From a virus: a DNA stretch of 64,000 nucleotides. Of this stretch, positions 6,207-58,008 are shown piece by piece. Each line of letters opens with the position of its first letter. Within the stretch, counting starts at the first letter, position 1. The notes beneath the pieces were generated by a model, which was not told the origin of the DNA, searched no databases, and saw only the letters and a program-made list of their open reading frames with translations. Made by a program: the position numbers and the translations under genes. Where the stretch lies: the IMG/VR virus record IMGVR_UViG_3300042691_041718, positions 64,001-128,000 of that record. One strand, written 5' to 3'.

Positions 6207-6413
6207 GTGTTGATCATCATGAATAAGAGTCAAATTATAGAAGTTAGTTTACAATTCAGAAAAATTATTATAAACTCCAATTATGGTTTGCCTAATAAGT
6301 TTCTAAATATAGATGATGAATATTATTCAGAAACTTTTAAGTTAAAAATACTTTATAAAAGATTTCATAAAATAGAAAAGATATGGAAAAGTGGGAAGAC
6401 GCACAATCAGTAG
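6207..6413 (+). CDS. Small protein with a PolB motif-B-like segment and an RxxKIxxI tail
   Basis: RKIIINSNYG, then KRFHKIEKIW. ATG at 6219 is the likelier start. Confidence 0.55.
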   Translation: MLIIMNKSQIIEVSLQFRKIIINSNYGLPNKFLNIDDEYYSETFKLKILYKRFHKIEKIWKSGKTHNQ

Positions 6414-6736
6414 TTTGTATAAAACCATACTTAAATTATAGAGTTGGTGGTTCTTATAACATAAAAGGTAGAGGAAACTTGACTTTTAATGCTGACCCAG
6501 AAGTTGGTGGTAGAAAAGGTTGGGGTATTTGTATCGAAGATGATTGGTACGGATCACACGATGATAAAGGTAATCTTATAAAAGATTGGTGGAAAAAACC
6601 ATATTCAGAAAGAATTAAGTGGTATTATTTAGATTTAAATGAGTTAAATACTTATTTCATAACTTATGATGAATATTGGGAAACTAAATTGAAAGCGGAT
6701 AGAAGAGAAGATAAACTTAATCAATTAGGTATATGA
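6383..6736 (+). CDS. Hypothetical protein with C-terminal tail RREDKLNQLGI
   Basis: 117 aa ORF; ATGA-coupled to the next gene. Confidence 0.7.
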   Translation: MEKWEDAQSVVCIKPYLNYRVGGSYNIKGRGNLTFNADPEVGGRKGWGICIEDDWYGSHDDKGNLIKDWWKKPYSERIKWYYLDLNELNTYFITYDEYWETKLKADRREDKLNQLGI

Positions 6737-7113
6737 AGTATAAAGATAATAATTTTGTAAACTATCAAGATAAACAAAGAAATGGTAACTTTGATTACTA
6801 TTCAGATAAAAGTGATAGACAAAAGAGGAGAGAATTAGAACATAAATTGTCTATTTTTTATATGGGAAAACTTTCAAATAGAATTGAAAAGTTATGGTGG
6901 AATAATCTTAAAACATCTGATAAAGAAAAAATTTGTAGAGGTTATAATAACCAGTTAGATTATCTTTTACAAGATGAAGGTTATAGGAAATCACTTTGGT
7001 ATAGTCATAAAGTATTTGAGTCTTGGGAAGAATGGTTCGATTATATCAAAGTTGAGTATAAACCAAATAAGTCTTCTTATAGAAATGATAAATTGAAAAT
7101 GTTGGGTATATGA
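6733..7113 (+). CDS. Hypothetical protein with C-terminal tail RNDKLKMLGI
   Basis: 126 aa ORF; ATGA-coupled. Confidence 0.7.
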   Translation: MKYKDNNFVNYQDKQRNGNFDYYSDKSDRQKRRELEHKLSIFYMGKLSNRIEKLWWNNLKTSDKEKICRGYNNQLDYLLQDEGYRKSLWYSHKVFESWEEWFDYIKVEYKPNKSSYRNDKLKMLGI

Positions 7114-7343
7114 AAGTTCCTACTATTGAGGTGTTGGTAATGTCTTTATATAATGATATTTTAGATGCTAAGAAAAAATTAAAAAAATTAGAAAATGATT
7201 CAAGACTTAATATTTATCCAAGTCAGATAGATGTTTATCAAGAAATGAGTGAGTTAAAAAATTTTATTCAAAAAAATGAAGAATTATTAAGTCGATACAG
7301 GACTACAATAAGAGATGAAAAACTTAAACAATTGGGTATATGA
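7110..7343 (+). CDS. Small coiled-coil protein with C-terminal tail RDEKLKQLGI
   Basis: 77 aa ORF; ATGA-coupled. Confidence 0.7.
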   Translation: MKVPTIEVLVMSLYNDILDAKKKLKKLENDSRLNIYPSQIDVYQEMSELKNFIQKNEELLSRYRTTIRDEKLKQLGI

Positions 7344-7744
7344 CAGAAGATGAAGTTTTTGATATTATAAAGGATGTCTATTTTGAAGAAAACTTTGAAA
7401 TAAATAAAGCAAAGTATGCTTTTTTAGGTAAACCTAACTATACTAGTTTTCGTATAAAGAAGTATAATAATAAATTTAAAGGTTTTTATACTCATGTTAG
7501 AATACAAAATAAAGTATTAGGAAATCAAATACTTAATGATCATTGGGTTGTTATTGGATGTAATATTTCCAATGAGTATGAAATTGATTTCGATAGTGTG
7601 TTATCATTACAAATGTTTAAGGATTGGTTTGATGAATTGTTGGAAGCTGAGAAAAAGGTAGATCATTTAAAAAGTCGGTTCAATAAAATGAAAAGAAATT
7701 TTAAATCTGAACTAAGAGATTATCAATTAAAAAAGTTATTATGA
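7340..7744 (+). CDS. Hypothetical protein with C-terminal tail RDYQLKKLL
   Basis: 134 aa ORF; ATGA-coupled. Confidence 0.7.
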   Translation: MTEDEVFDIIKDVYFEENFEINKAKYAFLGKPNYTSFRIKKYNNKFKGFYTHVRIQNKVLGNQILNDHWVVIGCNISNEYEIDFDSVLSLQMFKDWFDELLEAEKKVDHLKSRFNKMKRNFKSELRDYQLKKLL

Positions 7745-8625
7745 AAGATATAAAGAGTTTTTGTAAGTTATTTGATTTGAATGTTCCAAATTTCAATGAA
7801 TTTGATTATTATATCAATCAATATAAAAAATTGTGGAGGTGGAAAAATATTGATGATTTAATAACATTATATGAATCAGCTGAATTAGAGATTGAAGATA
7901 TTTACCAGTTTAAATTGGATAAATCAAATGAGGCTATTGAGTTTCTTAAAAAATCGAGAGCTTATAATGAATTAAATGATGATAATTTAATTACTGATTT
8001 ACCAACCAATAAAAATGTTACTTTATCAGAAGATAAAAAATATTTATCTATCGATTTGAAGATGGCTAATTGGCAGGTTCTTAAAAAGTATGATCCATTC
8101 TTCCTAAATGAATTAGGAGATACTTATTCTGATTTCTTAAATAAGTTTGATATACATCCAATATTTCACAAGTCTAAACATTTCAGACAATACATCTTTG
8201 GTAATATAAATCCAAAAAGACAAGTTAGAGCTCAAAGAGTTATGATTGAAGATGTTATTAATAAATTGAGTGGTTTTGATGGTTTAACATTGGAATTTAT
8301 TAAGTATGATGAGGTTATATTCTCTTATGATGATATAAAAAAATTACAAAAAGAAGTTCTATTAGATATTATTAAAAATGAGTCTTATAATGTTAAAATA
8401 TTCAAAACTAAAATAACAGAAGATTTTAGAATAAATACTTATTTAGACTTTTTTGAAAATGAACTATATAAGGAGTTAACTGGTTGTGATGGTAGAAAAT
8501 ACTTTATTTACTTAAAAAAATACATATTTAATGAACCTATTGATATAAGAGACCTTTATTTTAGATGTGATGGTGACTTAGCAATCTGGGGAGTTGAAAA
8601 CTTAAAAATTGAACTAAATGACTGA
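7741..8625 (+). CDS. Hypothetical protein (possible polymerase palm-like acidic motifs)
   Basis: 294 aa; YLSIDLKMAN and IKYDEVIF. The function is uncertain. Confidence 0.6.
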   Translation: MKDIKSFCKLFDLNVPNFNEFDYYINQYKKLWRWKNIDDLITLYESAELEIEDIYQFKLDKSNEAIEFLKKSRAYNELNDDNLITDLPTNKNVTLSEDKKYLSIDLKMANWQVLKKYDPFFLNELGDTYSDFLNKFDIHPIFHKSKHFRQYIFGNINPKRQVRAQRVMIEDVINKLSGFDGLTLEFIKYDEVIFSYDDIKKLQKEVLLDIIKNESYNVKIFKTKITEDFRINTYLDFFENELYKELTGCDGRKYFIYLKKYIFNEPIDIRDLYFRCDGDLAIWGVENLKIELND

Positions 8626-8887
8626 TTTATTTGTATATGATTTAAATGATAATTTAATTGGTTGTCATAATATTGATTTTGAAATTCTTTCTGGTGAAAA
8701 TCTAACTCAAGCTAAAAATCGTAGCAGAGATTTTATAAATAAAAAATTTGGTATACAAGCCTTTGATAAGGATACAAAAGTAACTATACATAGAAACTTT
8801 GGTGAAGAAAAATTTTCAATTATATTAAAGATTTCAGACAAACAACTAACTAGAGAAATGATACTAACTAATATTTTAAACAAATGA
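8618..8887 (+). CDS. Hypothetical protein with a degenerate tail REMILTNIL
   Basis: 89 aa ORF within the coupled operon. Confidence 0.6.
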   Translation: MTDLFVYDLNDNLIGCHNIDFEILSGENLTQAKNRSRDFINKKFGIQAFDKDTKVTIHRNFGEEKFSIILKISDKQLTREMILTNILNK

Positions 8888-9504
8888 TAGACGATTTATT
8901 TAATAAAAGACCAATTAGACTTGATAGAATGACTTGTAACTCTGGTGGTGCCGTTGGAACGGATACTGTTTTTGAAAATAAATGTATTGAAAGAGGTATT
9001 AAGGTTAGGGCTTTTTCCTATAAAACTAAATATCATGACTCACCTAATAAAGTTGAGATATCAGATGATGATTATAATGAAGGTGTTAATGAGATAAACC
9101 GTGCTAATAAGGTTTTAGGTAGATTTGGTATTCAAAAATATATGAATCTCTTAGCTAGAAATTGGTCTCAAGTTAAATATTCTAATCAAGTTTTTGCAAT
9201 AGGTAGTATAGTAAATCCTGGTAGTAAAGATAGTAAGGGTTATTATAATAAATCTAAATATGATATCGTTTCGGGTGGTACTGGTTATGCTGTTCAAATG
9301 GCTATCAATAACGAGAAAGAAGTTTACGTTTATGAACAAAATAAGAAGTCTTGGTTTAGATGGTCTTATAATGCTTTAAGATTTGTTCAATTAAAAGATA
9401 CTCCAAAAATAACAGAAGAGAATTTTGCTGGAATTGGTACTCGTGAGATAAATAGTGATGGTGTTCAAGCGATTGAAGATTTATTAAATAAAACTTTTAA
9501 TTAA
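8884..9504 (+). CDS. SLOG-superfamily (DprA/YspA-like Rossmann) protein
   Basis: SGGAVGTD, SGGTGYAVQMA and FAGIGTRE motifs. Confidence 0.65.
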   Translation: MIDDLFNKRPIRLDRMTCNSGGAVGTDTVFENKCIERGIKVRAFSYKTKYHDSPNKVEISDDDYNEGVNEINRANKVLGRFGIQKYMNLLARNWSQVKYSNQVFAIGSIVNPGSKDSKGYYNKSKYDIVSGGTGYAVQMAINNEKEVYVYEQNKKSWFRWSYNALRFVQLKDTPKITEENFAGIGTREINSDGVQAIEDLLNKTFN

Positions 9505-10483: not shown

Positions 10484-10494
10484 AAAAAAGTTAT

Positions 10495-10502
10495 TATATT
10501 TG
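10495..10502 (+). promoter_or_regulatory. TAnnTTTG host-type promoter element for gltX
   Basis: TATATTTG 29 nt upstream of the ATG at 10532. Confidence 0.55.
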
Positions 10503-10531
10503 TATTATATATAAAAAATAACATTACCTAT

Positions 10532-12025: not shown

Positions 12026-12081
12026 GTATTTGAATAGTAATATATATGAAAGGTGGATAAACCACCTTTCATATTACTATT

Positions 12082-12651: not shown

Positions 12652-12684
12652 GATATAATAAAACAATTCATTACTTTTGTAAAT

Positions 12685-13412: not shown

Positions 13413-13415
13413 AAT

Positions 13416-14326: not shown

Positions 14327-14359
14327 TTCCTTATATTTGTAAAACAAAAGAGATAAGTT

Positions 14360-14542
14360 ATGAATGGTTCAGTAGATAGTATAGTTTATGATATGATTGA
14401 AAATACAACTTTGGATATCAATCAATATAATGATTTTTTAAGATTGATGGAAGATCATAAAAATAAATTGTATATGGAACAACTAAATCCGAATAGTGTT
14501 CAAACTATTTCTGATGAAGATTTCAATGATTTACCTTTTTAA
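14360..14542 (+). CDS. Small hypothetical protein
   Basis: 60 aa; TATATTTG at 14332..14339 upstream. Confidence 0.5.
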   Translation: MNGSVDSIVYDMIENTTLDINQYNDFLRLMEDHKNKLYMEQLNPNSVQTISDEDFNDLPF

Positions 14543-14543
14543 T

Positions 14544-18650: not shown

Positions 18651-18677
18651 AAAAGAGACTGAAAGGTCTCTTTTTTT
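18649..18677. terminator. Bidirectional intrinsic terminator
   Basis: AAAAAAGAGACT-GAAA-GGTCTCTTTTTT between convergent genes. Confidence 0.85.
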
Positions 18678-19008
18678 ATTTAAATAGATTTTTCAATCTC
18701 CAATCTCTGACTTCAATTTTAAAGTCCTCAAATGAATTGGTTCTTGATAGAATGTCAACTTTCTCATTTAATTCTTCTATTAGTGATTTTAGTTCTTCAC
18801 TTCTTTCTCTAATACGACCATCATAAACGCAATCAATTCTAGAATCACCTTGTTGGATTGGTACAAACCAAATAGTTACATTTTGATAATTAAACGATTT
18901 TGCTATTTCTGATAATGTCTCCTCTGCTCTTTGTCGAGACATGCCACCAATATTAACATAATAGGTGAATATTGGGTTATCTAAATTTAATTCATTCTGT
19001 TCTAACAT
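18676..19008 (-). CDS. Mini portal-clip-like protein with tail RDWRLKNLF
   Basis: [22 protein letters not shown]...IWFVP resembles a T4 gp20-type portal segment. Confidence 0.6.
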   Translation of the reverse strand: [110 protein letters not shown]

Positions 19009-23407: not shown

Positions 23408-25273
23408 TTAATCTCTTTTATTATTTTTATATTTCTCTTCTTCTTCAAAACGATATTTATCATATCTGTTTGCTATTTCAACTAGGAATTTATTTCTAAC
23501 AATATCTTGATTTTCAAATTCAAACATAAAAAGATCATCCATTCCATTAACCATTTTAATAAAATCTACATAACCAGAATCTCTTCTTCTCACATCATAT
23601 TGTGATGTATCTCCCATCATAACAGCTTTTGAATCATTACCCAAACGAGTAACCCATAACATAAGTTGTTTAATATTTGCATTTTGACAATTATGAACTA
23701 ATATATTTTCAACAAAATAATTATGGTTACCATCAACCTCTATATTATATACAATTTCAGGTTCTGAATTTTGTATATCTACAATATCGACTACTGATAA
23801 ATTTTCATTATATGTTATATTGTATAAATTTCTATCAAAATTACTTTCTAAACTATTATTTAGTTTATATAACATTGAGGGATGTATATATTTAGAAGTC
23901 AAATTAAACATTTTCAATGAGTTTATTTTATTTAGTACTAAAATATTACCTTTAGATGTCTTATAAACACTACCTTCTAATCCAAATTTATTTTTAATTA
24001 TATTTGATAATATTTGGACCTCTGTGAAACTCATTGAATTGGTAGAAAATGTAACACAACCATTTGATTTTGAAACCGATCCATCATCCATATACCATAT
24101 GGATAATGTTCTTAATGTAAACCATCTCTCAATATCATTACTAATTGTTTTTTTCGAGTCTTTATATAGTGAATTATAAAAATTTTCAGATATATTAATT
24201 GATTTAGTTTGAAACCCACATTGTGGTTCACCTGTATATCCAGACTTCAATGAATTTCTATATGATGATATATTTTCAAATATACTTTTTTTAAATTCCA
24301 TATATTCAATTTGTTTTATAGAATGGTTTGTCGAAATTCTATATGATTTTTTTAATTGTTTATTTGGTAATAATGATGAGTCACCCAAGCACATACCTAA
24401 TATTATATCATAAGAGTCATTAGTTAATATAGTTGAATCATTCGTTCCGGTATTCTTATATCTACATATTCTATCACCAATGGTTAAGTTTTTAACCTCT
24501 TCCCATTTAATTTCACCATCTCTGAATACGGAAAATGGATGATTTATTGTTGTTTTTAATGGTTTAACTCTATCTTTAACCGATATTTTAACAATATCTT
24601 TAATTCCATTTTCAAAAACTCCCGTTACTTTTTTATTTTCAACTATTTTTTTATTTTCATCCCAACTGGATACATAAATTTCTTTACCCATTTTGAAATA
24701 ATTAACAATTTCTTTCATTCTAAGGTAATTAAAAGATCCTCTTTTTTTATGGTTTGTAACTACTCTTGAGTCACCAGTAAAACATTCGTCAAGTAACATT
24801 ATACAATTATCATAAGTAGAACCTCTCATGTAAGCAAGTGGCTCAAATTTTATCTCTTCAGTTGAAAAAAGAAAATCCGTATTTTGTTTCCCAATTATTT
24901 TACAAAACGTTGTATAATAAGATTGTTTATAAGGATCAATTTTTTCAGCTATAGTTCCAGGTAAAGAACCTAAATTCTCACCGGATTCTTGAACTGGTTT
25001 AGTAATAATAATTTTTTCAACTTTCTTATCAGCTAATAAAGCTAAAGCTGTATAACAAGTTGTGAATGTTTTACTGGTACCAGCTGGTCCATGAACTACA
25101 CTTAGAATATTATTTCTAATACCCTTATAGAGATCATGTTGTTTAGGAGTTAACTGAACATTTGATTTATTAAATTCATCTTTAGATAATGAATTTTTCT
25201 TTCTTGATGTTTTTCTGTGTTCATAATCTTGAATCCCTTCGTCGATTTCTGATTTTAAATCTCGTTTAGCCAT
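23408..25273 (-). CDS. phoH: PhoH-family ATPase interrupted by an intein
   Basis: GPAGTSKT, TKPVQE, LGSLPG, EPLAYMRGSTYDN, LLDE|CQN, TRLG, GDTSQYD. The spliced product is about 256 aa. Confidence 0.92.
   Translation of the reverse strand: MAKRDLKSEIDEGIQDYEHRKTSRKKNSLSKDEFNKSNVQLTPKQHDLYKGIRNNILSVVHGPAGTSKTFTTCYTALALLADKKVEKIIITKPVQESGENLGSLPGTIAEKIDPYKQSYYTTFCKIIGKQNTDFLFSTEEIKFEPLAYMRGSTYDNCIMLLDECFTGDSRVVTNHKKRGSFNYLRMKEIVNYFKMGKEIYVSSWDENKKIVENKKVTGVFENGIKDIVKISVKDRVKPLKTTINHPFSVFRDGEIKWEEVKNLTIGDRICRYKNTGTNDSTILTNDSYDIILGMCLGDSSLLPNKQLKKSYRISTNHSIKQIEYMEFKKSIFENISSYRNSLKSGYTGEPQCGFQTKSINISENFYNSLYKDSKKTISNDIERWFTLRTLSIWYMDDGSVSKSNGCVTFSTNSMSFTEVQILSNIIKNKFGLEGSVYKTSKGNILVLNKINSLKMFNLTSKYIHPSMLYKLNNSLESNFDRNLYNITYNENLSVVDIVDIQNSEPEIVYNIEVDGNHNYFVENILVHNCQNANIKQLMLWVTRLGNDSKAVMMGDTSQYDVRRRDSGYVDFIKMVNGMDDLFMFEFENQDIVRNKFLVEIANRYDKYRFEEEEKYKNNKRD
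23690..24784 (-). mobile_element. Contiguous intein (365 aa) with a LAGLIDADG endonuclease in PhoH
   Basis: Starts CFTGDSRV; block B TTINHPF; LGMCLGDS and WYMDDG; ends YNIEV...NYFVENILVHN; +1 residue Cys. Confidence 0.92.
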
Positions 25274-25591: not shown

Positions 25592-28500
25592 ATGTGGAAA
25601 TACAATAGTGATTATGGTAAATGGTTTACAAAAACAGATTCTTTATTAAAAGAAGATTTTGATTTTTATAAACAAGAGTTGGTTGCTACTAGGTTTTATT
25701 CAAAAGCCCTAAGTGGTTCAGCTTATGTTGCGATTGATGATGTGAATAATTTATATGATGTTATTAATGCTTGGAAACCAAGAAACTGGTTTGTTAGTAC
25801 ATTAAGTTCTAATTTTGCTTATACACCACAACCGACAAAATTTCCAACTCCAATTGATACAAACTCTCAATATGATTTTTACACAAAAAACTTAAAAGAA
25901 TATAGTCTTACTTTAAAAAATCTTTTTACACCGGAAAGGTTGATGAAAGATATTTTAGCTAATTATATTCAAGTTGATGTAGCTACTACACAACAAATTG
26001 ATTTAACATTAGAGTTGGATAACTATTATATAGATGATATTAAGTTAAAAGATGGCCACAAAGTTTTAGTTAAAGACCAAGTAACATTTGAGATATTAGA
26101 TATATCTGTTAATCCAGATGAATATTTTAAAGGACCTTACACAATAGTTAATGAGGAAGGTTTAGATATAGAATATCAATATTATAGTAATGAGAACGGC
26201 TTATATGAATTTAGGAATAGAAAATTAGTTAAGTTAAATGACTTGGATGACTATGAAAAATGTTCTAGATTAAGCGTTTATGTTAAAATGGGTACAACAA
26301 ATCAAAATAAACAGTTTAGTGTTAGAAGATTATTAAACGGGTTTTATCCAACATCATTCAGAAATGAGCCAATGGAATTCGTTGAAAAACATAATTGGTT
26401 ATTAAGAAACAGAGTAGATTATAATAACTTATTTGAAACTAACTATTATGATATTTTTAGACATGGCACTCAATCTATTTATATAAGTGGTGTAACTTAC
26501 AGTATACCGGAAAGAACAATTGCAGTTGGTGAATTTGGTACAATAGTTAATACTCAAGATGGTTATTCAAATATAATACCTTGTAAATATAAAGATAATT
26601 TAAGAAGTATAACAAGTACTGAAAACTATTACTGGATTTGTGGTGATAATACAACTTTATTAAGAATAGGTAAACATGATTTCGAAATAAAAAATATAAA
26701 ATTAGATACCTATACAAATTTAAGATCAATATCATTTGTTAATAATTTGAGAGGTGTTATCGTAGGTGATTACAATACTATTTATATAACTAATGATGGT
26801 GGTGAAAAATGGCAGTTATTAGATTTTACAAGTTTTAGAGAATACAATTATAATAAGGTTATTTTTGTGACTGATACTAAATTTTATATTGGTGGTAAGA
26901 GTGGTGTATTTTTAGAAATCTCAGAAGATATAAATGGTTGGAGTGCTAGGAAGAGAAGAGTATCTAGACAAATAGATGATGAAGATGAGTATGTTTTAGT
27001 AGATCACATAAATGATTTATGGAAAACATCAATAAGTGGTTGGGGATTAAGTTACTCATACTATACACAATCAATTTCATCACCAAAGGATTTAGTTTTT
27101 ATGGCTGTTGATGGTGGTAAAATAATTGCATATAATGAGAATAATTTTATAGATAGTGACTTTATATATTTTGATTTTGATAAAAATTATGGTGATATAA
27201 AAAATATTACACAACAAAAAGGTACTAATAATTTCTTTTTTAGTAATGATGATGGTATCTATAAATTTGATATTAGTGATTTTAAATACTATGGTGTTGG
27301 TAATACATATTCAAATACAATAATATCAGCAACAGCACCTTCGAAAATATCAAGTTTATACGCAAATAGTTTATATGATTATAGAGGTGAATATTTGTTA
27401 ATAAGTGGAAATTATACTCTTGTTAAATCATCTACACATTCATCATCATATGATTTTGTTGATTTAGACTCGACTTTTTTCTCAAAATTAAAATCAAAGC
27501 TATTATTTATAGATTATGATATGGGTAGTAAATTAAATTTCTTTACTGATGAAGGAAATTATAGATTACCAAATTCAACAATTATAAAACAAAATGTTTT
27601 TTCGGAAAGTACAGAATTAACATTTAATAATTTAGTTTATGGAGCTACTGCCCCAAGTTTCATGACGCAGTCGGAAGTAACTTGGTATGACTATTGGTGT
27701 GATAGAGAAAAGACATTTGAGTATTACTCTGTTAATCCTCTTTCTAACTCATCAAAAGTTTTAATATCAAAAACATTTTCAGGAACTACTCAATTTACGG
27801 TGGCTACTGTCAGTTTTGTGAATACAAACACAGTTGATTTGTTAAAATTAGCACCATCATTTAATTATACTGGTACACAAAGTTCTAGATATAAACACAT
27901 CGGTGCTTCTATATCATCAGTAGGTGGATCTAATTTCACACTATATTTAAAAGATTACTTGATGGTTTTAGGTGTTACAAATAGTACATCAGCAGTTAGT
28001 AATAATAAATCTTTTGATGTTGATTTAGGTGATGTTTTAAGAATTGAATCTGGTGTTGTTGAAGGAAATTTCATAGTTAATAGAATTGAAAATTTCACCA
28101 ATAGTAATAAGTATATTTACATGTTTTCGGATTTTAGTGGAGATATAATAAAAAATCTAAAAACATCAACATCATCTATTGTATTAAAGAATTTAAATAA
28201 ATTTTATAACTCAGATGACTTAATCACTAATTTTAATTCACATCCGCTTGGAATAGGATATAAAATGAGTGATTATGGAGATGGTTACTTAAAAATTGAT
28301 CCTAAATTTAATAACTACACATCTTATTATAATTTAGCAACAGAAATTCATGTAAATTCTGATAATGATTATTTAGAATTTAACTCATCAGACTTTTTAT
28401 ATTATGGTATTCCAGATGGAACAAGCTCTGTCCCACAAACACTTAATTGTAATTCAAATGTTTATCCAACTGAGATTAGAGTTAATTTCAACTTATATCA

Positions 28501-35390: not shown

Positions 35391-35437
35391 ATGTCGGTTT
35401 TATATTTTAATATATACATTAAAATATAAAACTAAAT

Positions 35438-36580
35438 ATGAGTGTAGTATGTGGCGGTTCTTTATTTGGACCAAGTAGTCAATATATTAAGACAAATGGT
35501 GGTGACTTTATTGCAACTGAAGGTTCTAATATTAGAGAAAGATTGATGCTTTCTGATTTAAGAATACCTTATAAACAAATTTTAAAAAGTAGAATTATTC
35601 TTAAAAAAGGTCAAACTAATTATCTATTAAATCATTTAGGATTAGGAGATAATGCTACTTTTCTTTCTATAAAGGCTGTTTATGATGTAAAATCAAAAGT
35701 TGAAGCTGATAATTATGTTCAGTATAGTTATTATAACTACCCAGTTCAGATTTTTAGTTTTGCTCAATTATTGGTTTTAACCGGTAATTCATCAAATAGA
35801 GTTCCTCAATTATATTTGAATAACCCAAATGTTAATTATCCGGTTTATTTAGATGTCATGGTTGCTGTTATTGATGATAATTATTCGGTATTTAATGATT
35901 ATATAAATCAATCAGGAACATCATTTACTGGTTTGGAATTCACTGATATTAAATCTTATGTTGTCGGTGAATCTATTGTTATTTATGATAAAAATACAAC
36001 ACCAAGAGCACTTATTTACTTAGAATTAGTTTATATAAATTCAATAACATTAGATAGTAACTTTATTATTATAGATGATGAAAGTCAGGGTATGATATTT
36101 TTACAATTTTTAACAGAGTTTGATGCTAATCAAGCACATTCACTTCTAAATTATATTTTAGAAAATCCTACTGTTAATATTAATGATATAGATCCACTTG
36201 TGGATTCAGTACAACCGGTTATTTATTTCAATTCAAAATCTGGATCAATGGGTAGTTATATAGAATTTAATAGTGCAACTTATGGTGTTCCATATGATAC
36301 ATCATATGGTTTTACATTTTCTACTTCTATAAGTCTATCCACTTATGGAACTTCAAGTGTTATACAAAAAGATAGATTGATTGAATTGTTAATTGATCAT
36401 GTTAGTGATAATAGAGATGGTATTATAAATCTTATGGATTCAAATTTAATAATTTCAGGAGTATCAGGAATTGTTCACTCAATTACAAACATAGGTACGT
36501 ATTCTGTTACATTTAACTTCATGGATTTGGCTAAAAATAAGTTAGATCATGTATTTGTTAACTTAGATATAGTAAATTAA
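35438..36580 (+). CDS. Putative virion structural protein
   Basis: 380 aa; C-terminal Ig-like segment (GTYSVTFNFMD); TAATATATA at 35408..35416. Confidence 0.5.
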   Translation: MSVVCGGSLFGPSSQYIKTNGGDFIATEGSNIRERLMLSDLRIPYKQILKSRIILKKGQTNYLLNHLGLGDNATFLSIKAVYDVKSKVEADNYVQYSYYNYPVQIFSFAQLLVLTGNSSNRVPQLYLNNPNVNYPVYLDVMVAVIDDNYSVFNDYINQSGTSFTGLEFTDIKSYVVGESIVIYDKNTTPRALIYLELVYINSITLDSNFIIIDDESQGMIFLQFLTEFDANQAHSLLNYILENPTVNINDIDPLVDSVQPVIYFNSKSGSMGSYIEFNSATYGVPYDTSYGFTFSTSISLSTYGTSSVIQKDRLIELLIDHVSDNRDGIINLMDSNLIISGVSGIVHSITNIGTYSVTFNFMDLAKNKLDHVFVNLDIVN

Positions 36581-36597
36581 AAATAATTAATAAAAAA

Positions 36598-37593
36598 ATG
36601 AGATATAGTTGGGATAAATTTTTAAGACCTTTTTCAATGAATGATGTAAATGTTCAGGTTATGAATGATGATGGAGTTGTTACTCACACCATTAACCCAA
36701 GTACAATATTAAATGTCATGGTTAATAACAACCTAGTTAAGGTTAGTTTGAAAAGTGGTAGAGTTGTTATTATACCATTTTCAACATTAAATGAGGCTAA
36801 AATGGCTCTTCCAAGAATTAAACAATTAATAAGTGATCTAAATAAGAGAACTGGTAGAAAATACCTAAATAAGTTATCCAAATCATTTTATTATCAAAGT
36901 AATATTCCGGATGGGACATATACGGATTTTATAGAACCTGGTTCATTTTGGTATGATACCGAATTTGGATTTCTATATATTTATATACTTGATAATATAT
37001 CTGGTTATAACTGGGTAACAGCGGTTGGTGAAATTGGTCCACAAGGAGATCCAGGTTTAAGTGCTTATGAGGTTTGGTTAAACGAGGGAAATATTGGATC
37101 ATTAGATACATTTTTCTCATCAATAAGTGGTACATCCGGGACTGATGGTACATCCGGAACAAGTGGTACATCCGGTGTTTCAGGAACAAGTGGTACATCC
37201 GGGACTGATGGTACATCCGGAACAAGCTATACACCAACATCCGGATCTTGGATATTATCTCCTGGTTCAAACACAGTTAGTTTTACAGTTCCAGTTGGAA
37301 ATTCATATGTTATGTGGGTTAATGGTAATATACCAAATGGTATTATTAATTGGAATGCGACGGTTACTATTTCAAATATAAATGTTCCAGTTATTGGAAA
37401 TCAATATGGTTGGTATTATTTAGCAGGAAATCAATTGGTTTTAGATTCAATACCAAGTCATATAATTGGAACATCTGGTTCTATAATCACGACCGATCCA
37501 AATCCAGTAAATAGTAATACTTTTACATTTGGAATAACTAATAATACGAGTGAAAACCAAATGGTTTATTATGGATATATAAAAGTATCTTAA
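36598..37593 (+). CDS. Tail-fibre-like protein with collagen-like and SGT triplet repeats
   Basis: GEIGPQGDPGLSAYEVW and SGTSGTDGTSGTSGTSGVSG. Confidence 0.6.
   Translation: MRYSWDKFLRPFSMNDVNVQVMNDDGVVTHTINPSTILNVMVNNNLVKVSLKSGRVVIIPFSTLNEAKMALPRIKQLISDLNKRTGRKYLNKLSKSFYYQSNIPDGTYTDFIEPGSFWYDTEFGFLYIYILDNISGYNWVTAVGEIGPQGDPGLSAYEVWLNEGNIGSLDTFFSSISGTSGTDGTSGTSGTSGVSGTSGTSGTDGTSGTSYTPTSGSWILSPGSNTVSFTVPVGNSYVMWVNGNIPNGIINWNATVTISNINVPVIGNQYGWYYLAGNQLVLDSIPSHIIGTSGSIITTDPNPVNSNTFTFGITNNTSENQMVYYGYIKVS
37125..37226 (+). repeat. Two exact 39-bp direct repeats (63-bp period) encoding SGT triplets
   Basis: AAGTGGTACATCCGGGACTGATGGTACATCCGGAACAAG at 37125..37163 and 37188..37226. Confidence 0.9.
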
Positions 37594-39533: not shown

Positions 39534-39674
39534 CTATATATTAAAAATCTTTCTTAACTTTCTCTTTCTTATACTAACCTTTTCAAAGTTTAATATTTTC
39601 ATTTGATACTCAAAAAACGCACTAGTCATATAGCTTCTACCAACTTGTCTTGATTTTCCCAATATTACATTCAT
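39534..39674 (-). CDS. 46-aa ORF (not in the supplied track): terminase Walker-A-like segment plus RxxKLxxI tail
   Basis: Hand translation MNVILGKSRQVGRSYMTSAFFEYQMKILNFEKVSIRKRKLRKIFNI; ATGA-coupled to the upstream gene. Confidence 0.55.
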   Translation of the reverse strand: MNVILGKSRQVGRSYMTSAFFEYQMKILNFEKVSIRKRKLRKIFNI

Positions 39675-39979
39675 AAACCCAACTCAATTAATTTTATCTC
39701 TCTGATTAAAGCCGTTTTTGTATAATGATTATAATCTAAATTATATTCAGATTTTAAGTAATCTTTAACACATTCGGTATATTTACTATAAACAAAGTCT
39801 TGATAGTTATCATCACACCCCATTACTTCTTTGTAAAACATTCTTTCGAGAATTCTTTCTCTATCTCTGAGTATGGCACCTTCTTCATATCTTTGAGATT
39901 TAATAGCTTTCATCTTTTCATCTCTTAAATCTAAAATATCAATAAGTAGTTGTAACAATTTTACTTTTTCCATATCCAT
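39671..39979 (-). CDS. UVR-domain protein with tail REIKLIELGL
   Basis: KMKAIKSQRYEEGAILRDRERIL fits the UvrB/UvrC/ClpC UVR coiled-coil motif. Confidence 0.6.
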   Translation of the reverse strand: MDMEKVKLLQLLIDILDLRDEKMKAIKSQRYEEGAILRDRERILERMFYKEVMGCDDNYQDFVYSKYTECVKDYLKSEYNLDYNHYTKTALIREIKLIELGL

Positions 39980-40131
39980 TCAATAATCTTTTTTCTTCTC
40001 TGAGAAATTCTCACTAAATACATCTTTTTAAGCATTACCTCAGTCTCCTCAACCAGTTTTTTCATTTTTTCATTATGAAAATCTTTTCTTCTTTCTGATA
40101 AATAAGTATCCACATCCTTAACCTTAAACAT
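39961..40131 (-). CDS. 56-aa ORF (not in the supplied track) with tail RRKKIIEWI
   Basis: Hand translation MFKVKDVDTYLSERRKDFHNEKMKKLVEETEVMLKKMYLVRISQRRKKIIEWIWKK; fills the gap and overlaps the cobB stop. Confidence 0.45.
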   Translation of the reverse strand: MFKVKDVDTYLSERRKDFHNEKMKKLVEETEVMLKKMYLVRISQRRKKIIEWIWKK

Positions 40132-50951: not shown

Positions 50952-50954
50952 AAT

Positions 50955-50985
50955 AAAAAAGAGTTACTGTTGTAACTCTTTTTTT
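50955..50985. terminator. Bidirectional intrinsic terminator
   Basis: AAAAAAGAGTTAC-TGTT-GTAACTCTTTTTT. Confidence 0.85.
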
Positions 50986-51677
50986 ATTAAATATAAGTGA
51001 CCAACATTACCGTTTTTAGCATGATGACCCATCGAATCTATTCTTGTTTTATCACCTTTTAGTTTTAAACCAGTTAGTTTTTGTTTACCTAAAATTCTTT
51101 TTTCACCGTTACAAGTACTACAATGATTTAATCCAACTTGACCCTTTCCATTACAAAAAGAACATTCTTGGTCCATATATTTACCAGTACCTTCACAAAA
51201 GTCACAACCATCATCAGCATCAAAAACTTTTAAAATATTACCATCGTTATCACGAATAATAATTTTTGATGAGAAGTCTTTACCAGTACCATCACAAGAT
51301 TTACACTTTACCCATCTTTCAAATTCGACTGTTCCATCAAAATCATCATCAACTTGTATTATAATATCATTTACTTCATTTTTTTTAAATTTTTCTCTAG
51401 TTGATTTAACATCATCATATTCTAAATCAATATTTATATTAAATAACTCATAGTATTCATTATAGTTATTTCCATATTTAGATTTTAAATCATAGTCACT
51501 TCGATTCTCACCACATAAAACATCATAAGCCTCGGTCATTTCGGAGAAAATATCAGCATCTCCATTCTTATCAGGATGGTGTTTAAAACTCAACTTATAA
51601 TAAGATTTTTTTATTGTTTTTTCATCTGCATTTTTAGGAACACCTAAAATAGCATAATAATTTTTTGATAAATTCAT
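50964..51677 (-). CDS. dnaJ: DnaJ-family co-chaperone (J domain plus CxxCxGxG zinc finger, shortened)
   Basis: NYYAILGV, HHPDK, then CKSCDGTG, CDFCEGTG, CSFCNGKG and CSTCNGE. Confidence 0.88.
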   Translation of the reverse strand: MNLSKNYYAILGVPKNADEKTIKKSYYKLSFKHHPDKNGDADIFSEMTEAYDVLCGENRSDYDLKSKYGNNYNEYYELFNINIDLEYDDVKSTREKFKKNEVNDIIIQVDDDFDGTVEFERWVKCKSCDGTGKDFSSKIIIRDNDGNILKVFDADDGCDFCEGTGKYMDQECSFCNGKGQVGLNHCSTCNGEKRILGKQKLTGLKLKGDKTRIDSMGHHAKNGNVGHLYLIKKELQQ

Positions 51678-51865
51678 TAGTCTTGACTTCTATATTTTTT
51701 CTCAATATAAGCTGCTCTACTTTTAGCTGCTCTTTTTTTATCAGTGTTTTTAATAAATTCTTTTCGAGATCTTAACTCTTTAATCATTTTGTTTTTATCC
51801 CACTTCTTTTTAAGTTTTTTAAGTGCTCTTTCAATACCACTTTTATCTACTTCAACTATTAACAT
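51677..51865 (-). CDS. rpsU: Ribosomal protein bS21
   Basis: 62 aa basic protein: IVEV...IERALKKLKKK...ELRSRKEFIK...KKR. Confidence 0.85.
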   Translation of the reverse strand: MLIVEVDKSGIERALKKLKKKWDKNKMIKELRSRKEFIKNTDKKRAAKSRAAYIEKKYRSQD

Positions 51866-51866
51866 A

Positions 51867-52151: not shown

Positions 52152-52166
52152 AACTATTATTATTTT

Positions 52167-55653: not shown

Positions 55654-55915
55654 ATAAAGAATAATTATTTTCTTTTATATATTCAATATATTCCTTTCCC
55701 CCATCCATTATTTCCAAAAAAGTACAAAAATCATCTATATTCAAATTATCTATTGAAAATTTTATCTCAATCTCAGTTTTATCAACAACAGATTTTCCAT
55801 TTCCGTTGTTTCCAACTAGTAAGATAAGTTCTCCTTTTTCTGTATTTAATTTTACGACTTGTTCATTATTTCCGAATGATTTAAAACCTCTAATTCCAAT
55901 TTCGCTAATCAGCAT
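55616..55915 (-). CDS. N-terminal 41 aa of the SbcC/gp46 ATPase plus a 58-aa N-intein
   Basis: IGIRGFKSFGN and LLVGNNGNGK (Walker A), then SVVDKTEIEIK, which fits intein block A (S/C-x4-T-x-I); the N-intein starts at 55792. Confidence 0.85.
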   Translation of the reverse strand: MLISEIGIRGFKSFGNNEQVVKLNTEKGELILLVGNNGNGKSVVDKTEIEIKFSIDNLNIDDFCTFLEIMDGGKEYIEYIKENNYSLYEQYIKKQKSIR

Positions 55916-55947
55916 AATATAAAAATAATTTTTAAATTATACTAATT

Positions 55948-56322
55948 TTATTGAAATAAGTTTGAGTTAGTTGCTGTTATTATTTCCTCCGGTTTTACTT
56001 CATCTAAAACAATTTTACCTAAGTCTTCTTCGTAATATGAAACATATTTTTCAAAGTCAACTTCATCCAATCTTTTAGATATTTCTTCATATGGAATTAA
56101 TTTTTTTAAAATACTTTCTAATAAGTCTTTATATCCATCCCATAATTCTATATTCATGCCAATTACATCTTCAACTGTTTCATCAGTCGTTAAGACAATA
56201 TTTTTATCTGAATAAAAAATGGTACCTTCGTAAAATTTATTATCTATATTTAGACTAATTAATACCAAGACACCATTTTCATATTTACCCATATAATCTA
56301 CTATATCGGCTTTAATCTCCAT
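55948..56322 (-). CDS. Hypothetical protein
   Basis: 124 aa acidic ORF. Confidence 0.6.
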   Translation of the reverse strand: MEIKADIVDYMGKYENGVLVLISLNIDNKFYEGTIFYSDKNIVLTTDETVEDVIGMNIELWDGYKDLLESILKKLIPYEEISKRLDEVDFEKYVSYYEEDLGKIVLDEVKPEEIITATNSNLFQ

Positions 56323-56548
56323 TTAAAATATCATTTATTTTTTCATCTCTTTTAATCTGATCATTATTTAATAAATAACCAGAATTAATTAAAGTCCACT
56401 TAATGGACTCAGCCATTTCATTTCTACCATCACCATAAGCATATAACATATCTTTATAGTAGGTGTGAATTGCCTGTCTTTCTTCTTTATCTTCTAATTT
56501 GTGTATTTTATTTAAATCTAAAAAATATTTTCCAATTTTATCATTCAT
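56312..56548 (-). CDS. Hypothetical protein with tail RDEKINDIL
   Basis: 78 aa ORF. Confidence 0.65.
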   Translation of the reverse strand: MNDKIGKYFLDLNKIHKLEDKEERQAIHTYYKDMLYAYGDGRNEMAESIKWTLINSGYLLNNDQIKRDEKINDILNGD

Positions 56549-56556
56549 TATAATTA

Positions 56557-56829
56557 TTACAATTTTTCATCAATAATAAATTCAATCTTTTTAAATCTAT
56601 TATCTAAGTCTGTGAAGATAATTGATATTTTATCAACATCTTTAAACTCTCTCGCTTCACCAGTAAATTCGTTTACCATTACATCTTTTTTGTAAACTAC
56701 ATCAATACCTGGCTCTTCACCTAAAAATCTTCTCATATCTTCCTTGATTTGAGATAATTTCCAATCATCTACTTTAAAATTTATTTTAGAAATATAATCT
56801 CTAATTGCGATTTCTTTCATTGAGTTCAT
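56557..56829 (-). CDS. Hypothetical protein
   Basis: 90 aa ORF. Confidence 0.6.
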   Translation of the reverse strand: MNSMKEIAIRDYISKINFKVDDWKLSQIKEDMRRFLGEEPGIDVVYKKDVMVNEFTGEAREFKDVDKISIIFTDLDNRFKKIEFIIDEKL

Positions 56830-56845
56830 ACAAATTATTTATTTT

Positions 56846-57181
56846 TTAAAATCTACCACCTCTATCTATGAAGTAAGTATTATTTTTTTCGATAATCTCT
56901 AAATTATTATGTACTATTTGACAATAAGTTTCAAAATTATCAATATCTTCTTTTTCTAAATCAAACCACTCCCCACTTACTTTACAAGCTTTAAACTTCT
57001 TATGAAGATGTGCTTCTATTTTAGTCCCCCACTTTGAATGAAATGACTTTTCTATTTTTAGGTCAGAAGCATTACCAGTTTTGAATTCTTTCATTCTTTC
57101 ATTTATACTTCTTTTTGTGTAACCTATTTTATAAAGTTTTTTACCTCCAAATTCTGATGAGATTAAATATACATTTATCAT
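56846..57181 (-). CDS. T5orf172/MUG113-type GIY-YIG-like protein
   Basis: VYLI...YKIGYT...ERMKEFKTGN...IEAHLHKKF...GEWF. Confidence 0.8.
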   Translation of the reverse strand: MINVYLISSEFGGKKLYKIGYTKRSINERMKEFKTGNASDLKIEKSFHSKWGTKIEAHLHKKFKACKVSGEWFDLEKEDIDNFETYCQIVHNNLEIIEKNNTYFIDRGGRF

Positions 57182-57214
57182 AATGTATATATAATCACCT
57201 CATGTCTCTATTTT

Positions 57215-57478
57215 TTATTTTTTAAATATATCTTCTTTATAAGAAGAGATTAGTTTACTTATCTCTTTTTGAGCCTTATTTTTATCTAACTCACCTATTG
57301 GAATATAAAAAGTCTTACGATATGGAATCGGATATGTCGGTGATTTCTTACCATACAATTTAGCAATTTTATTTCTTCTTTCGAATGTTTGTAACATACC
57401 AGTTATATCCTCCCATACATTTTTCTTCTTTTTCTTAACAAAGAGACTTTTTACAAACTCCACTATTTTATTTATCAT
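57215..57478 (-). CDS. Mini protein with a portal-like segment and an internal RRNKIAKL
   Basis: RKTFYIPIGELDKNKAQKEISKLISSYKED. Confidence 0.6.
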   Translation of the reverse strand: MINKIVEFVKSLFVKKKKKNVWEDITGMLQTFERRNKIAKLYGKKSPTYPIPYRKTFYIPIGELDKNKAQKEISKLISSYKEDIFKK

Positions 57479-57713
57479 AAATTTTTTTAATTTTTACTCT
57501 TCTTTTATCATGTCTTGGGTTGTATGGAAACCAATAGTTATTGAAAGATATAAAATGACCTGATAAGTCAACCTCTCCAGTTTTTTCATCAATCTTTATA
57601 GAAAATTTTTTATAATTACTTTTTCTTCTTACCAAGTGTTTTAACACTTCTTTTAACTTCTTCATCATCAGTATCGTCTCCGTATTTAAAATCCAAGTGA
57701 AATAGAGTACCAA
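57468..57713 (-). CDS. Mini protein with a portal-like segment and tail RRVKIKKI
   Basis: IKIDEKTGEVDLSGHFISFNNYWFP. The start is uncertain (GTG 57713 or ATG near 57668). Confidence 0.5.
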   Translation of the reverse strand: MVLYFTWILNTETILMMKKLKEVLKHLVRRKSNYKKFSIKIDEKTGEVDLSGHFISFNNYWFPYNPRHDKRRVKIKKIYDK

Positions 57714-58008
57714 CCGGTCCTTTATAATCAGGGTGTTCAGTAATATCCATTTCTTTATATTCCTTATCTTCGATTAAAGATTCTATTATTCTATCACGAT
57801 TTTCAGCTTTAACTTCATTTTTAATTCTTTCCATTTCTTCTTCTGAAGTTCCACCTGGTGATGTTGTATTTTCTTCAATTTTTGTATTTGAATGTAGTTC
57901 AGCATATTCAGCCATCCAATCGGCTTTTGATCCAGTGACACCAATATTATTTAAAATAGGTGCCCATTTTTTCATTAATTCTTCTTTATTTGGTTTTTCC
58001 ATAAACAA
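57616..58008 (-). CDS. Mini protein with major-capsid-like segments and an internal RDRIIESL
   Basis: KEELMKKWAPIL and GPVGTLFHLDFKYG. Confidence 0.6.
   Translation of the reverse strand: MFMEKPNKEELMKKWAPILNNIGVTGSKADWMAEYAELHSNTKIEENTTSPGGTSEEEMERIKNEVKAENRDRIIESLIEDKEYKEMDITEHPDYKGPVGTLFHLDFKYGDDTDDEEVKRSVKTLGKKKK

Follow-up and report, generated by a model that had tools for sequence, protein, structure and literature searches.

Conserved small genes of a huge T4-like phage that look like natural mimics of core phage proteins

Closest described systems

The tip of the T4 portal protein gp20 contacts the terminase gp17 through residues 291-296 (PMC4493910), and a free peptide of 24 residues taken from gp20 (288-311) is reported to bind gp17 and to inhibit packaging (Lin, Rao and Black 1999, via PMC4493910). 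Among the six small ORFs treated below (Table 1), ORF2, and weakly ORF3, appears to present the homologous clip strand-tip-helix as a free small protein. Whereas the T4 peptide is a laboratory fragment, ORF2 is a natural conserved gene for a putative TerL binder, and it has additional strands, a helical hairpin and the common tail. A second parallel is DSAD1, the anti-DSR2 protein of SPbeta-like phages, which mimics the tail tube protein and fills the pocket of that protein in DSR2 (PMC10973363); it is a small phage protein that, by resembling a structural protein of the phage itself, takes that protein's binding site. As described there, DSAD1 is one folded protein with a known sensor, whereas here we are dealing with very short pieces of several core proteins, joined to a common tail.

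T4 offers a further comparison in its gp24 and gp23: ORF6 is a gp23-like capsid paralogue kept across the clade but, unlike gp24, it retains only 45-120 residues, the propeptide/N-arm part, and is unable to build an HK97-fold shell subunit. Eukaryotic microProteins of the Id and LITTLE ZIPPER type consist of an interaction segment of a larger protein and are thought to form non-productive complexes with the partners of that parent. They too are small proteins derived from a segment of a larger one, but they belong to another domain of life, have no shared address tail and offer no counterpart to the catalytic PolB and P-loop pieces. Lastly, AAA+ unfoldases recognize C-terminal tags such as ssrA or the MuA-type basic C-terminal signal for ClpX, and the phage tail is likewise short, basic-hydrophobic and placed at the C-terminus or close to it; numerous unrelated proteins bear it, and the phage has a ClpB/C-like ATPase of its own. 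The sequence of the tail is different, however, it also occurs internally (ORF3, the ORF6 family), and the phage ATPase lacks the N-terminal adaptor domain. We found no description of such a gene class in the literature.

The small genes, their conservation and their tail

The window (64,000 nucleotides) comes from an uncultured phage, huge and T4-like, that is represented by a 186-kb fragment; this record is 69% complete and contains none of the portal, capsid, terminase (TerL) and PolB genes. Since portal, PolB and TerL are missing from the phage's own record, the parent proteins used in the similarity tests were those of complete relatives (LR745206, LR756502 and IMG/VR G001-G006). All six of the small ORFs originally pointed out exist, and the lengths given for ORF3 and ORF4 are those called on close relatives.

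Table 1. Small ORFs discussed, in window positions. For ORF1, ORF4 and ORF6 the likely true ATG start is used, with the start or extent of the original prediction in brackets; the resemblances are graded in the text.
Feature	Length	Position	Strand	Content
ORF1	64 aa	6219..6413 (GTG 6207)	+	PolB motif-B-like RKIIINSNYG; tail KRFHKIEKIW near C-terminus
ORF2	110 aa	18676..19008	-	portal clip-like strand-helix (aa 15-38), tip GGMSRQRAEE; two further strands, helical hairpin, tail VRDWRLKNLFK
ORF3	87 aa	57215..57478	-	internal tail RRNKIAKLY, then portal clip-like FYIPIGELDKNKAQKEISKLISSY
ORF4	66 aa	57468..57668 (TTG 57713)	-	...DLSGHFISFNNYWFPYNPRH; tail DKRRVKIKKIYDK
ORF5	46 aa	39534..39674	-	TerL Walker-A-like strand-loop-helix (ILGKSRQVGRSYMTSAF); tail RKRKLRKIFNI
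Neighbour of ORF5	102 aa	39671..39979	-	tagged small gene; UVR-like motif; tail REIKLIELGL
ORF6	128 aa	57616..58002 (57616..58008)	-	gp23-like major capsid protein N-terminus, truncated paralogue; internal tag-like RDRIIESLIE, lysine-rich end

The claim that these genes are not pseudogene debris holds well: in distant relatives, five of the six have either orthologues at the corresponding position or large families. ORF1, ORF2, ORF5 and ORF6 have such orthologues or families, ORF3/ORF4 a homologous slot, and the dN/dS of ORF2 is 0.09. The invariant parts of the mini-gene families are the parent-like motif and the tail, and identical residues are encoded by different codons in copy and parent, so that the likeness lies at the protein level. 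The ORF3/ORF4 slot is unoccupied in some relatives, and that of ORF3 is variable, holding a gene of 84 aa in LR745206, one of 134 aa in L067 and none in L066. The same build is seen again in relatives with PolB motif A and two further capsid segments. An unbiased scan of small against large ORFs in LR745206 gave matches from E 1e-19 to about 1e-3, at or below the best reversed control (0.002). Two of these fall on the MCP and two on a scaffold-like protein, the others on PolB and the ClpB/C-like ATPase. In relatives, searches with Pfam Gp23 and PolB also pick tail-ending ORFs of 49-79 aa.

The tail itself is real and far above chance. Its lineage-wide pattern is R-x-x-[KR]-[IL]-x-x-[IL]-hydrophobic. 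The tail occurs on 21 of the 138 small ORFs here (15%) and 117 of 601 in LR745206 (19.5%), as against about 0.3% in shuffles, and is enriched about 50-fold at C-termini over internal positions; its codons vary between copies. The stricter R-x-x-K-[IL]-x-x-[IL] form had been attributed to all six ORFs. ORF4 and ORF5 carry it C-terminally and ORF1 nine residues short of its end, but ORF2 has R in place of K, ORF3 carries the tail internally and in ORF6 there is just an internal variant, with the family consensus NRDRKIDxLI. Since it marks roughly every sixth small gene, and mostly genes that are no mimics, the tail is not mimic-specific.

Similarity to the proposed parents

The original prediction took each ORF for a piece of a core protein, and because these six pieces were chosen by eye their apparent significance is inflated. 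The assignments of ORF6 and ORF2 stand and that of ORF5 does so moderately, whereas ORF1 and ORF3 are weak and ORF4 falls. Genome-wide blastp gave no match at E below 1 for ORF1, ORF2, ORF4 and ORF5, and Pfam and PHROG searches none at all for these four and ORF6. Comparison with the parents in relatives (hhalign, HMM) detected profile similarity for ORF2 and ORF5, and weakly for ORF1; hhalign P values were 5e-6 to 2e-3 for the proposed parents, against 0.3-0.55 for swapped controls, and among the 995 ORFs of LR745206 the profiles of ORF2 and ORF5 had the proposed parent as best non-self, non-tail match.

Judged from its sequence, ORF6 is confirmed as a real paralogue of the capsid N-terminus. 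Its aa 7-47 align with aa 7-45 of the relatives' MCP at 55% identity over 41 aa (E 2e-11 to 2e-13, and 2e-11 in an unbiased search of all six-frame genome segments). Homologues fall into at least 167 clusters, some of which match Pfam Gp23, and the family keeps MCP aa 1-45, LLPVAMK..VKP and GPxxLFYMDFKYG; the orthologues in relatives are syntenic.

The similarity of ORF2 to the portal is confirmed at the profile level (hhalign P 4.7e-6 over 24 columns; top non-self HMM match in LR745206, E 5e-5), and its homologues form 80 clusters and occur in 6/6 IMG/VR relatives. Its tip is nearly identical to the G[LM]SRQRAEE of the relatives' portals; SRQRAEE is invariant in those portals but variable within the ORF2 family, and consequently there is no clean co-variation of ORF2 with the portal. 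The segment shared by ORF2 and ORF3 aligns to T4 gp20 residues about 279-312, within the clip domain. The AF2 model of ORF2 has a pLDDT of 79 overall and 92 in the N-domain. Fold searches with it returned only generic beta-alpha-beta-beta and helical-hairpin matches (best Z 4.3, Foldseek E 0.1) and no row pairing the N-terminal domain with a portal; the single portal row (7qog_A, Z 5.1) aligned the C-terminal helical hairpin alone.

For ORF5, a resemblance to TerL is moderately supported by hhalign (P 3e-4 over 31 columns; cross-controls 0.3-0.55) and by TerL being its best non-tail HMM match in LR745206 (E 0.009). Syntenic orthologues are present in LR745206 and four IMG/VR relatives, and in six orthologues both the Walker-A-like RQxGxS motif and the -FNI end are invariant (R9, Q10, G12, S14, R36, F44, N45, I46). 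The start of ORF5 is coupled to the stop of the upstream gene. Its tagged neighbour has a motif resembling that of the phage ClpB/C-like ATPase (Pfam UVR E 0.0044, under the cut-off), and 21 aa of the LR745206 orthologue of this neighbour align at 71% with the ClpB/C-like protein of 701 aa (E 1e-4).

The likeness of ORF1 to PolB is weak and covers motif B alone: hhalign aligns 15 columns with the PolB C-part at P 0.0024. Its orthologues sit between a Metallophos gene and the orthologue of 6383..6736 (LR745206 265897-266055, L076 7088-7276), and three syntenic ones retain K-x3-N-[SG]-x-Y-G and the basic tail. Weak, too, is the portal clip similarity of ORF3: Pfam Portal_T4 matches at E 0.0025, under the gathering score, phrog_213 matches the identical segment at E 0.0048, blastp against the relatives' portals gives 8e-5 and tblastn matches land in gp20 of over 200 cyanophages, but genome-wide blastp (E 0.06) does no better than its reversed-sequence control (0.03). 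The portal label given to ORF4 is wrong, similarity to the relatives' portals being absent. Its best LR745206 match is a PolB motif-A mini-gene (83154-83393, E 0.1), and its YWFP-plus-tail unit is found again in LR745206 (291877-292131) and L067.

Interface mimicry and its alternatives

Such conserved mini-genes look like natural protein mimics. Our best explanation, tentatively held, is that a subset of tagged small proteins, built from core-protein pieces and kept under protein-level selection, acts as interface mimics. The small ORFs are genuine, conserved and presumably translated genes in a clade of huge T4-like phages, and their products are members of a very large group of small proteins with the lineage-wide tail. 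Within the subset, ORF6 probably stems from the capsid N-terminus, ORF2 (and weakly ORF3) from the portal clip tip, ORF5 from the terminase strand/P-loop/helix and ORF1 from PolB motif B; in relatives, PolB motif A and further capsid segments join these sources. Each piece would be a free-standing interface mimic, a viral "microprotein", competing with its parent for the parent's partner. ORF2 is the best-founded case: as it seems to copy the clip tip, where the terminase docks, it should bind TerL and, we infer, hold back or regulate DNA packaging, either the phage's own or that of a co-infecting T4-like competitor. ORF6, with its copy of the capsid propeptide and N-arm, is predicted to engage the scaffold or prohead, and the shared tail may serve independently as an address or docking label for one putative partner. 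PolB motifs A and B and the TerL P-loop are catalytic-core sites rather than known interfaces, and interface mimicry consequently fits ORF1 and ORF5 poorly.

The original prediction preferred immune decoys, in which the pieces imitate sensor epitopes of capsid, portal, terminase and polymerase and block or titrate the sensors, while the tail recruits a common helper, for example an unfoldase or protease. DSAD1 (PMC10973363) is a known phage mimic of a structural protein that traps a sensor, MCP, portal, TerL and polymerase are all sensed by Avs families (PMC13581612), selection acts on motif and tail, and the phage encodes a ClpB/C-like AAA+ ATPase. Nevertheless, we consider this unlikely: Avs sensors are reported to read whole conserved core folds across extended interfaces (PMC13581612), a kind of recognition beyond the reach of pieces of 25-45 residues; some 15-20% of all small genes, mostly non-mimics, have the tail; the phage ClpB/C-like protein has no Clp_N adaptor-binding domain; and nothing in this analysis connects the genes with Avs3, Avs4 or CapRel. 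Because the matching T4 portal peptide binds the terminase and blocks packaging, we favour interface mimicry over Avs decoys, and dominant-negative interference, originally the second choice, appears to fit the portal-clip piece better.

It is rather improbable that the genes encode virion cargo or assembly accessories, their capsid and portal pieces loading small proteins into the prohead like the T4 capsid-targeting sequence, with the tail as a second sorting label and any mimicry of function incidental. ORF6 and other small ORFs of LR745206 do copy the MCP propeptide/N-arm and the adjoining GMGAV..AQP..GSGD, the expected site of head-protease processing, and small ORFs also copy the scaffold-like protein whose gene adjoins that of the MCP, but the PolB and TerL pieces are left unexplained and the genes lie among replication, recombination and small accessory genes, outside any head module. 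Just as doubtful is the suggestion that the pattern is mostly chance, with ORF6 the sole true paralogue and the rest common strand-loop-helix motifs picked by eye from a pool of hundreds of fast-evolving tagged small genes. Consistent with it, genome-wide blastp supports ORF6 alone, Pfam and PHROG are silent for all but ORF3, and fold searches are generic, ORF4 failing outright. Against it stand the parent ranking of the ORF2 and ORF5 profiles and the hhalign separation from swapped controls, as well as the identity of the families' invariant residues with the parent motif and the independent Pfam matches in relatives that land on more tailed mini-ORFs.

Debris, gene conversion and intein remnants were rejected (different codons, conservation, no intein blocks). 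In particular, the view that the pieces are flanks of homing-endonuclease or intein sites, or split-intein N-extein stubs, copied elsewhere and decaying, is largely refuted and very improbable: the genome is indeed rich in mobile elements (a LAGLIDADG gene adjoining ORF1, a PhoH intein, a split SbcC, HNH genes), and relatives have an insertion hot spot in the TerL Walker A as well as a split PolB, but the LR745206 orthologue of ORF1 has no adjacent LAGLIDADG gene, junction Cys/Ser residues and DNA-level identity to the parents are absent, ORF5 runs on along the TerL helix past the P-loop, the MUG113 gene beside ORF3 is conserved and syntenic, and decay is opposed by the long-term conservation and low dN/dS.

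Core-protein segments in the small ORFs

The original prediction read six small ORFs as pieces of core proteins: the portal, the major capsid protein (MCP), the terminase TerL and the polymerase PolB. This holds strongly for ORF6 and ORF2, moderately for ORF5 and weakly for ORF1 and ORF3, but was wrong for ORF4. The window takes up positions 64001-128000 of an IMG/VR virus record of 186,465 bp (28% G+C, an estimated 69% complete), which encodes no portal, MCP, TerL or PolB and no gp45-like clamp, and in phmmer searches against all ORFs of their own record the six ORFs gave self matches only. Because the parents are missing from it, we have used complete relatives as stand-ins: the uncultured huge phages LR745206 (W01, 635 kb) and LR756502 (W02, 642 kb), along with the IMG/VR relatives G001-G006 (385-508 kb). 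W01 and W02 are syntenic with the window over 25.6-36.6 kb and 50.9-59.3 kb, and both encode a T4-type portal, a gp23-type MCP, TerL and a split PolB. The W01 PolB consists of two distant genes with the break between motifs A and B, likewise in W02, and mini-genes for motif A and for motif B are present elsewhere in the W01 genome. The gene content of the window includes UvsX-, SbcC/gp46-, RNA-ligase- and NAD-ligase-like genes; a ClpB/C-like AAA+ ATPase is encoded, and homing endonucleases and inteins are numerous. One window ORF is a PhoH-like ATPase with a LAGLIDADG-type intein inside (PHROG matches to PhoH and to LAGLIDADG endonuclease).

Coordinates of the six ORFs and of the other features discussed
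Feature	Coordinates	Sequence	Remark
ORF1	6207..6413	window	likely ATG 6219
ORF2	18676..19008	window	
ORF3	57215..57478	window	
ORF4	57468..57713	window	likely 66 aa, ATG 57668
ORF5	39534..39674	window	
ORF6	57616..58008	window	likely ATG 58002
ORF3/ORF4 slot	57215..57713	window	
LAGLIDADG homing endonuclease gene	5296..6174	window	free-standing
60-aa ORF	14360..14542	window	
PhoH-like ATPase with intein	23408..25273	window	one ORF
Genes with DnaJ-labelled and Ribosomal_S21-labelled L067 orthologues	50964..51677; 51677..51865	window	together 50964..51865
Tandem rows of tailed genes	6383..7744; 39534..40131; 56312..57713	window	
Tandem row of tailed genes	307294-308522	W01	
Small proteins with UVR-like motif	39671..39979	window	
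Small proteins with UVR-like motif	58335..58655; 155366..155752	genome	
ClpB/C-like ATPase	35399..37588	genome	without Clp_N
Homologue of the MCP mid piece	26730-26987	own genome	
Split PolB	130568-131992; 232803-234344	W01	

When the relatives' portal, MCP, TerL and PolB were compared by unbiased blastp with every six-frame segment of the phage's own genome, the one match of clear significance was ORF6 (to MCP aa 7-45, with 55% identity across 41 residues and E 2e-11). It belongs to a family of at least 167 homologue clusters, typically of 145-167 aa and with conserved synteny, built from MCP aa 1-45, an LLPVAMK..VKP segment, a GPxxLFYMDFKYG strand and a 48-residue charged insert; the window's copy has lost the middle segment. 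Its likeness to the MCP is limited to aa 7-45; longer members of the family match about aa 1-120, and a few of these have precomputed PF07068 matches. The window's own copy matches nothing in Pfam and is not a gp23-like MCP (PF07068, an HK97-fold body with A and P domains). Comparison of window positions 57616..58002 with positions 521-907 of L115, a 1.39-kb metagenomic contig, places all 18 nucleotide differences within the first ~35 ORF6 codons, in a recombination patch limited to the mimic segment; the two sequences do not differ in ORF4, in ORF3 or in the 93-aa gene upstream.

The ORF2 family comprises 80 homologue clusters of 108-133 aa, with one copy per genome in all six IMG/VR relatives. 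Aligned by hhalign with a six-member portal alignment, it pairs ORF2 15-38 with portal 280-303 (P 4.7e-6), and in a search of all 995 W01 ORFs with an ORF2 HMM the portal was the top non-self match (E 5e-5); against Pfam ORF2 gave no match. The portal segment common to ORF2 and ORF3 aligns to about 279-312 of T4 gp20, and the clip strand-tip-helix segment is present in the ORF2 family at profile level, the ORF3 match being weaker. In T4, the terminase gp17 docks on the gp20 clip domain (279-358), which projects from the capsid; gp17 contacts the tip residues N291, M292, R295 and K296 (PMC4493910). According to the same paper, packaging is inhibited by a 24-residue gp20 peptide, 288-311, that binds gp17 (PMC4493910); this peptide corresponds to the segment carried by the ORF2 family. 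The ORF2 tip, GGMSRQRAEE, is almost the same as that of the lineage's portal, G[LM][SP]RQRAEE; because the portal tip is nearly invariant across the genomes compared, co-variation of the two tips is uninformative.

AlphaFold modelled ORF2 (pLDDT 79; 92 for the N-domain alone) as a strand-helix-strand-strand unit followed by a helical hairpin with the tail at its end, and the three strands and one helix of the N-domain model are the element content described for the portal clip. Four fold searches with two ORF2 models (Foldseek, VIA-align) returned generic matches only, small alpha/beta folds in the case of the N-domain (best Z 4.3); no row matched the N-terminal domain to a portal, and the sole portal row, 7qog_A (Z 5.1), aligned the C-terminal hairpin alone. 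With 66-110 aa, as against about 500 aa with wing, stem, clip and crown, none of ORF2, ORF3 and ORF4 is a full portal protein. Neither ORF2 nor ORF3 had close relatives in IMG/VR as searched by word patterns.

In W01 an orthologue of ORF5 (46 aa) occupies the equivalent position, with the same genes on either side; four IMG/VR relatives have positional orthologues too. The resulting six-member family has just eight invariant residues, R-Q-x-G-x-S (Walker-A-like) and R..F-N-I (tail), and it aligns with TerL residues 95-125 over about 31 columns (hhalign P 3e-4, versus 0.3-0.55 for swapped controls), and in W01 TerL is its top non-tail match (E 0.009). ORF5 has GRS in place of the TerL GKT and no Pfam match, and it is not a complete TerL ATPase (PF03237 Terminase_6N, with Walker A, Walker B and catalytic Glu). 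Among the 150 best TerL relatives of L109, another relative's sequence, more than 30 are interrupted by inserted sequence precisely at the lysine of Walker A (query position 116/117), which makes this site a hot spot for inteins in the clade; it is also the TerL site that ORF5 copies.

For ORF1, too, the W01 orthologue lies between the same neighbours, and the relative L076 has a further positional orthologue. The motif K-x3-N-[SG]-x-Y-G is present in all three members, the L076 copy reading LINGAYGA, compared with LNGSYGA in the lineage's own PolB; hhalign of the family against PolB gave P 0.0024 over only 15 columns. ORF1 is not a family B polymerase (PF00136, motifs A, B and C), having the motif-B-like K-x3-N-S-x-Y-G only, and has no match in Pfam. 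The LAGLIDADG homing endonuclease gene of the window lies between a Metallophos gene and ORF1; L076 carries the same 292-aa gene at the equivalent spot and W01 is without it.

ORF3 and ORF4 occupy a variable slot flanked by ORF6 and MUG113 orthologues, which is empty in W02 and in the relative L066, carries a single ORF in W01 (84 aa) and in the relative L067 (134 aa), and contains 66 + 87 aa in close relatives of the window phage. ORF3 scored 17.0 bits against Pfam PF07230 Portal_T4 (gathering cut-off 22.9), at profile positions 204-235 only, and the same 32 residues gave sub-threshold E values of 0.0025 with Portal_T4 and 0.0048 with PHROG 213; its unbiased blastp match (E 0.06) was not better than a reversed-sequence control (0.03). 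ORF4 has no portal similarity and no Pfam match, its nearest relative being a W01 mini-gene with PolB motif A (E 0.1).

The shared tail and the recurrence of mini-genes

The pattern R-x-x-[KRQ]-[ILV]-x-x-[ILV]-hydrophobic occurs within the final 18 residues in 21 of the 138 small ORFs here and in 117/601 in W01, against a shuffle expectation of about 0.3%; it is nearly missing from mid-protein windows and is kept in orthologues. The tail is thus real, but, being spread over small ORFs generally, it is a lineage-wide small-protein label and not a mark of the mimics. It is commoner than background on parent-derived mini-genes that were found independently of it (about 6-7/9), and ORF3 and the ORF6 family (NRDRKIDxLI) have internal copies. 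Tail-bearing small genes also stand in tandem rows with 4-nt start/stop overlaps, both in the window and in W01. Three in succession end in ...KLxxLGI-stop, where the GGA of the Gly may serve also as the ribosome-binding site of the next gene.

Searches of W01 and W02 with Pfam Gp23 and PolB returned the full genes together with ORFs of 49-79 aa. The extra capsid mini-ORFs are an MCP C-terminal piece (E 1e-6) and an MCP mid piece, the latter with a homologue in the window phage's own genome; the PolB motif A mini-ORFs are 11/14 identical to that phage's own PolB. Every one of these W01 and W02 mini-ORFs terminates in the basic tail. A blind blastp of small against large W01 ORFs gave matches with E values between 1e-19 and about 1e-3 (0.002 for the best reversed control), two of them on the MCP, two on a scaffold-like protein encoded beside it, and others on PolB and the ClpB/C-like ATPase.

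Selection, possible roles and rejected origins

All six ORFs count as real genes, being open and closely packed against neighbour genes. Residues shared by copy and parent are mostly encoded by different codons (4/11, 5/11 etc. identical) and the tail codons are variable as well; therefore selection acts at the peptide level. Together with the orthologues and families in relatives and a dN/dS of 0.09 for ORF2 (versus its orthologue on a 629-kb contig), this bears out the earlier contention that the ORFs are not debris. Conservation of fragment plus tail among relatives extends to ORF1, ORF2, ORF5 and ORF6, whereas the ORF3/ORF4 slot is variable, and for the class of six as a whole functional mimicry rather than debris is partly supported.

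The data fit tagged viral microproteins, part of them interface mimics of the phage's own machines. Judged from sequence, homology to an interaction segment applies to ORF2 (portal clip) and ORF6 (capsid propeptide/N-arm); it is not established for ORF1, ORF4 and ORF5. ORF2 is predicted to bind TerL at the portal-docking site, and packaging would then be delayed or blocked, either in self-regulation or against co-infecting relatives; the expected partner of ORF6 would be the scaffold or prohead. The ORF2 family is a directly testable case, because its T4 counterpart peptide binds terminase and blocks packaging. For the catalytic-motif pieces ORF1 and ORF5 we see no structural rationale for interface mimicry, and a decoy or other recognition role is possible. 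Immune decoys in general, that is, pieces masking or titrating host sensors, have a precedent in a mimic-type anti-sensor protein, DSAD1 (PMC10973363). However, recognition by Avs sensors reportedly involves entire conserved folds (PMC13581612), which weakens the Avs-decoy reading. A decoy role would be less likely than interface interference.

A wider proposal, which we put forward tentatively and consider rather unlikely, is that huge T4-like phages keep a modular kit of tagged fragment proteins. Each would be a short copy, under selection, of one of the best-conserved or interface segments of the phage's capsid, portal, terminase or polymerase, joined to a single address tail that a shared hub recognises. 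The kit would disturb assembly, packaging or replication in related phages infecting the same cell, or would hide the phage's proteins from the sensors of the host. If true, such a system would act at the protein level by means of fragments, an interference principle without a described counterpart; the literature searched yielded no description of such fragment genes. Should the ORFs be mimics, nature would have supplied a library of fragments with dominant-negative or masking action against the universal machines of tailed phages (capsid shell, portal, packaging motor and polymerase), and with it a new principle in phage-phage and phage-host conflict. Part of the orphan small genes that huge phages carry by the hundred would then be explained, and peptides that inhibit DNA packaging would be available ready-made. 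The tail on 15-20% of small genes implies a hub protein, whose identification would annotate more than 100 genes per genome together. A dead head protease as reader of the tag is rejected, as the two 'peptidase' genes here are M28-like or unassigned and do not resemble prohead proteases.

Other origins fared worse. A split-intein stub or intein remnant is rejected, as the ORF5 family keeps aligning along the TerL helix past the P-loop and then enters the tail; no intein blocks were seen after this or the other motifs in the family alignments. An origin from homing-endonuclease flanks is likewise rejected: the LAGLIDADG gene is absent beside the W01 ORF1 orthologue, and ORF3 has MUG113 as a neighbour of long standing, in conserved synteny. 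Finally, the codon differences exclude recent duplication, gene conversion and DNA-target mimicry, and so rule out a DNA-level element or nuclease-target mimic.

Three further observations concern other small genes of this phage. Two adjacent window genes have L067 orthologues labelled by Pfam as DnaJ and Ribosomal_S21 (62 aa), and would represent a phage-encoded ribosomal protein S21 beside a J-domain protein. The last residues of a 60-aa ORF are DEDFNDLPF (EEINDLPF in the W01 orthologue), an ending that resembles the acidic C-terminal tip of single-strand-binding proteins. Lastly, small proteins encoded at three places in the genome carry a UVR-like motif (..AA.LRD..) that resembles the UVR motif within the phage's ClpB/C-like ATPase.
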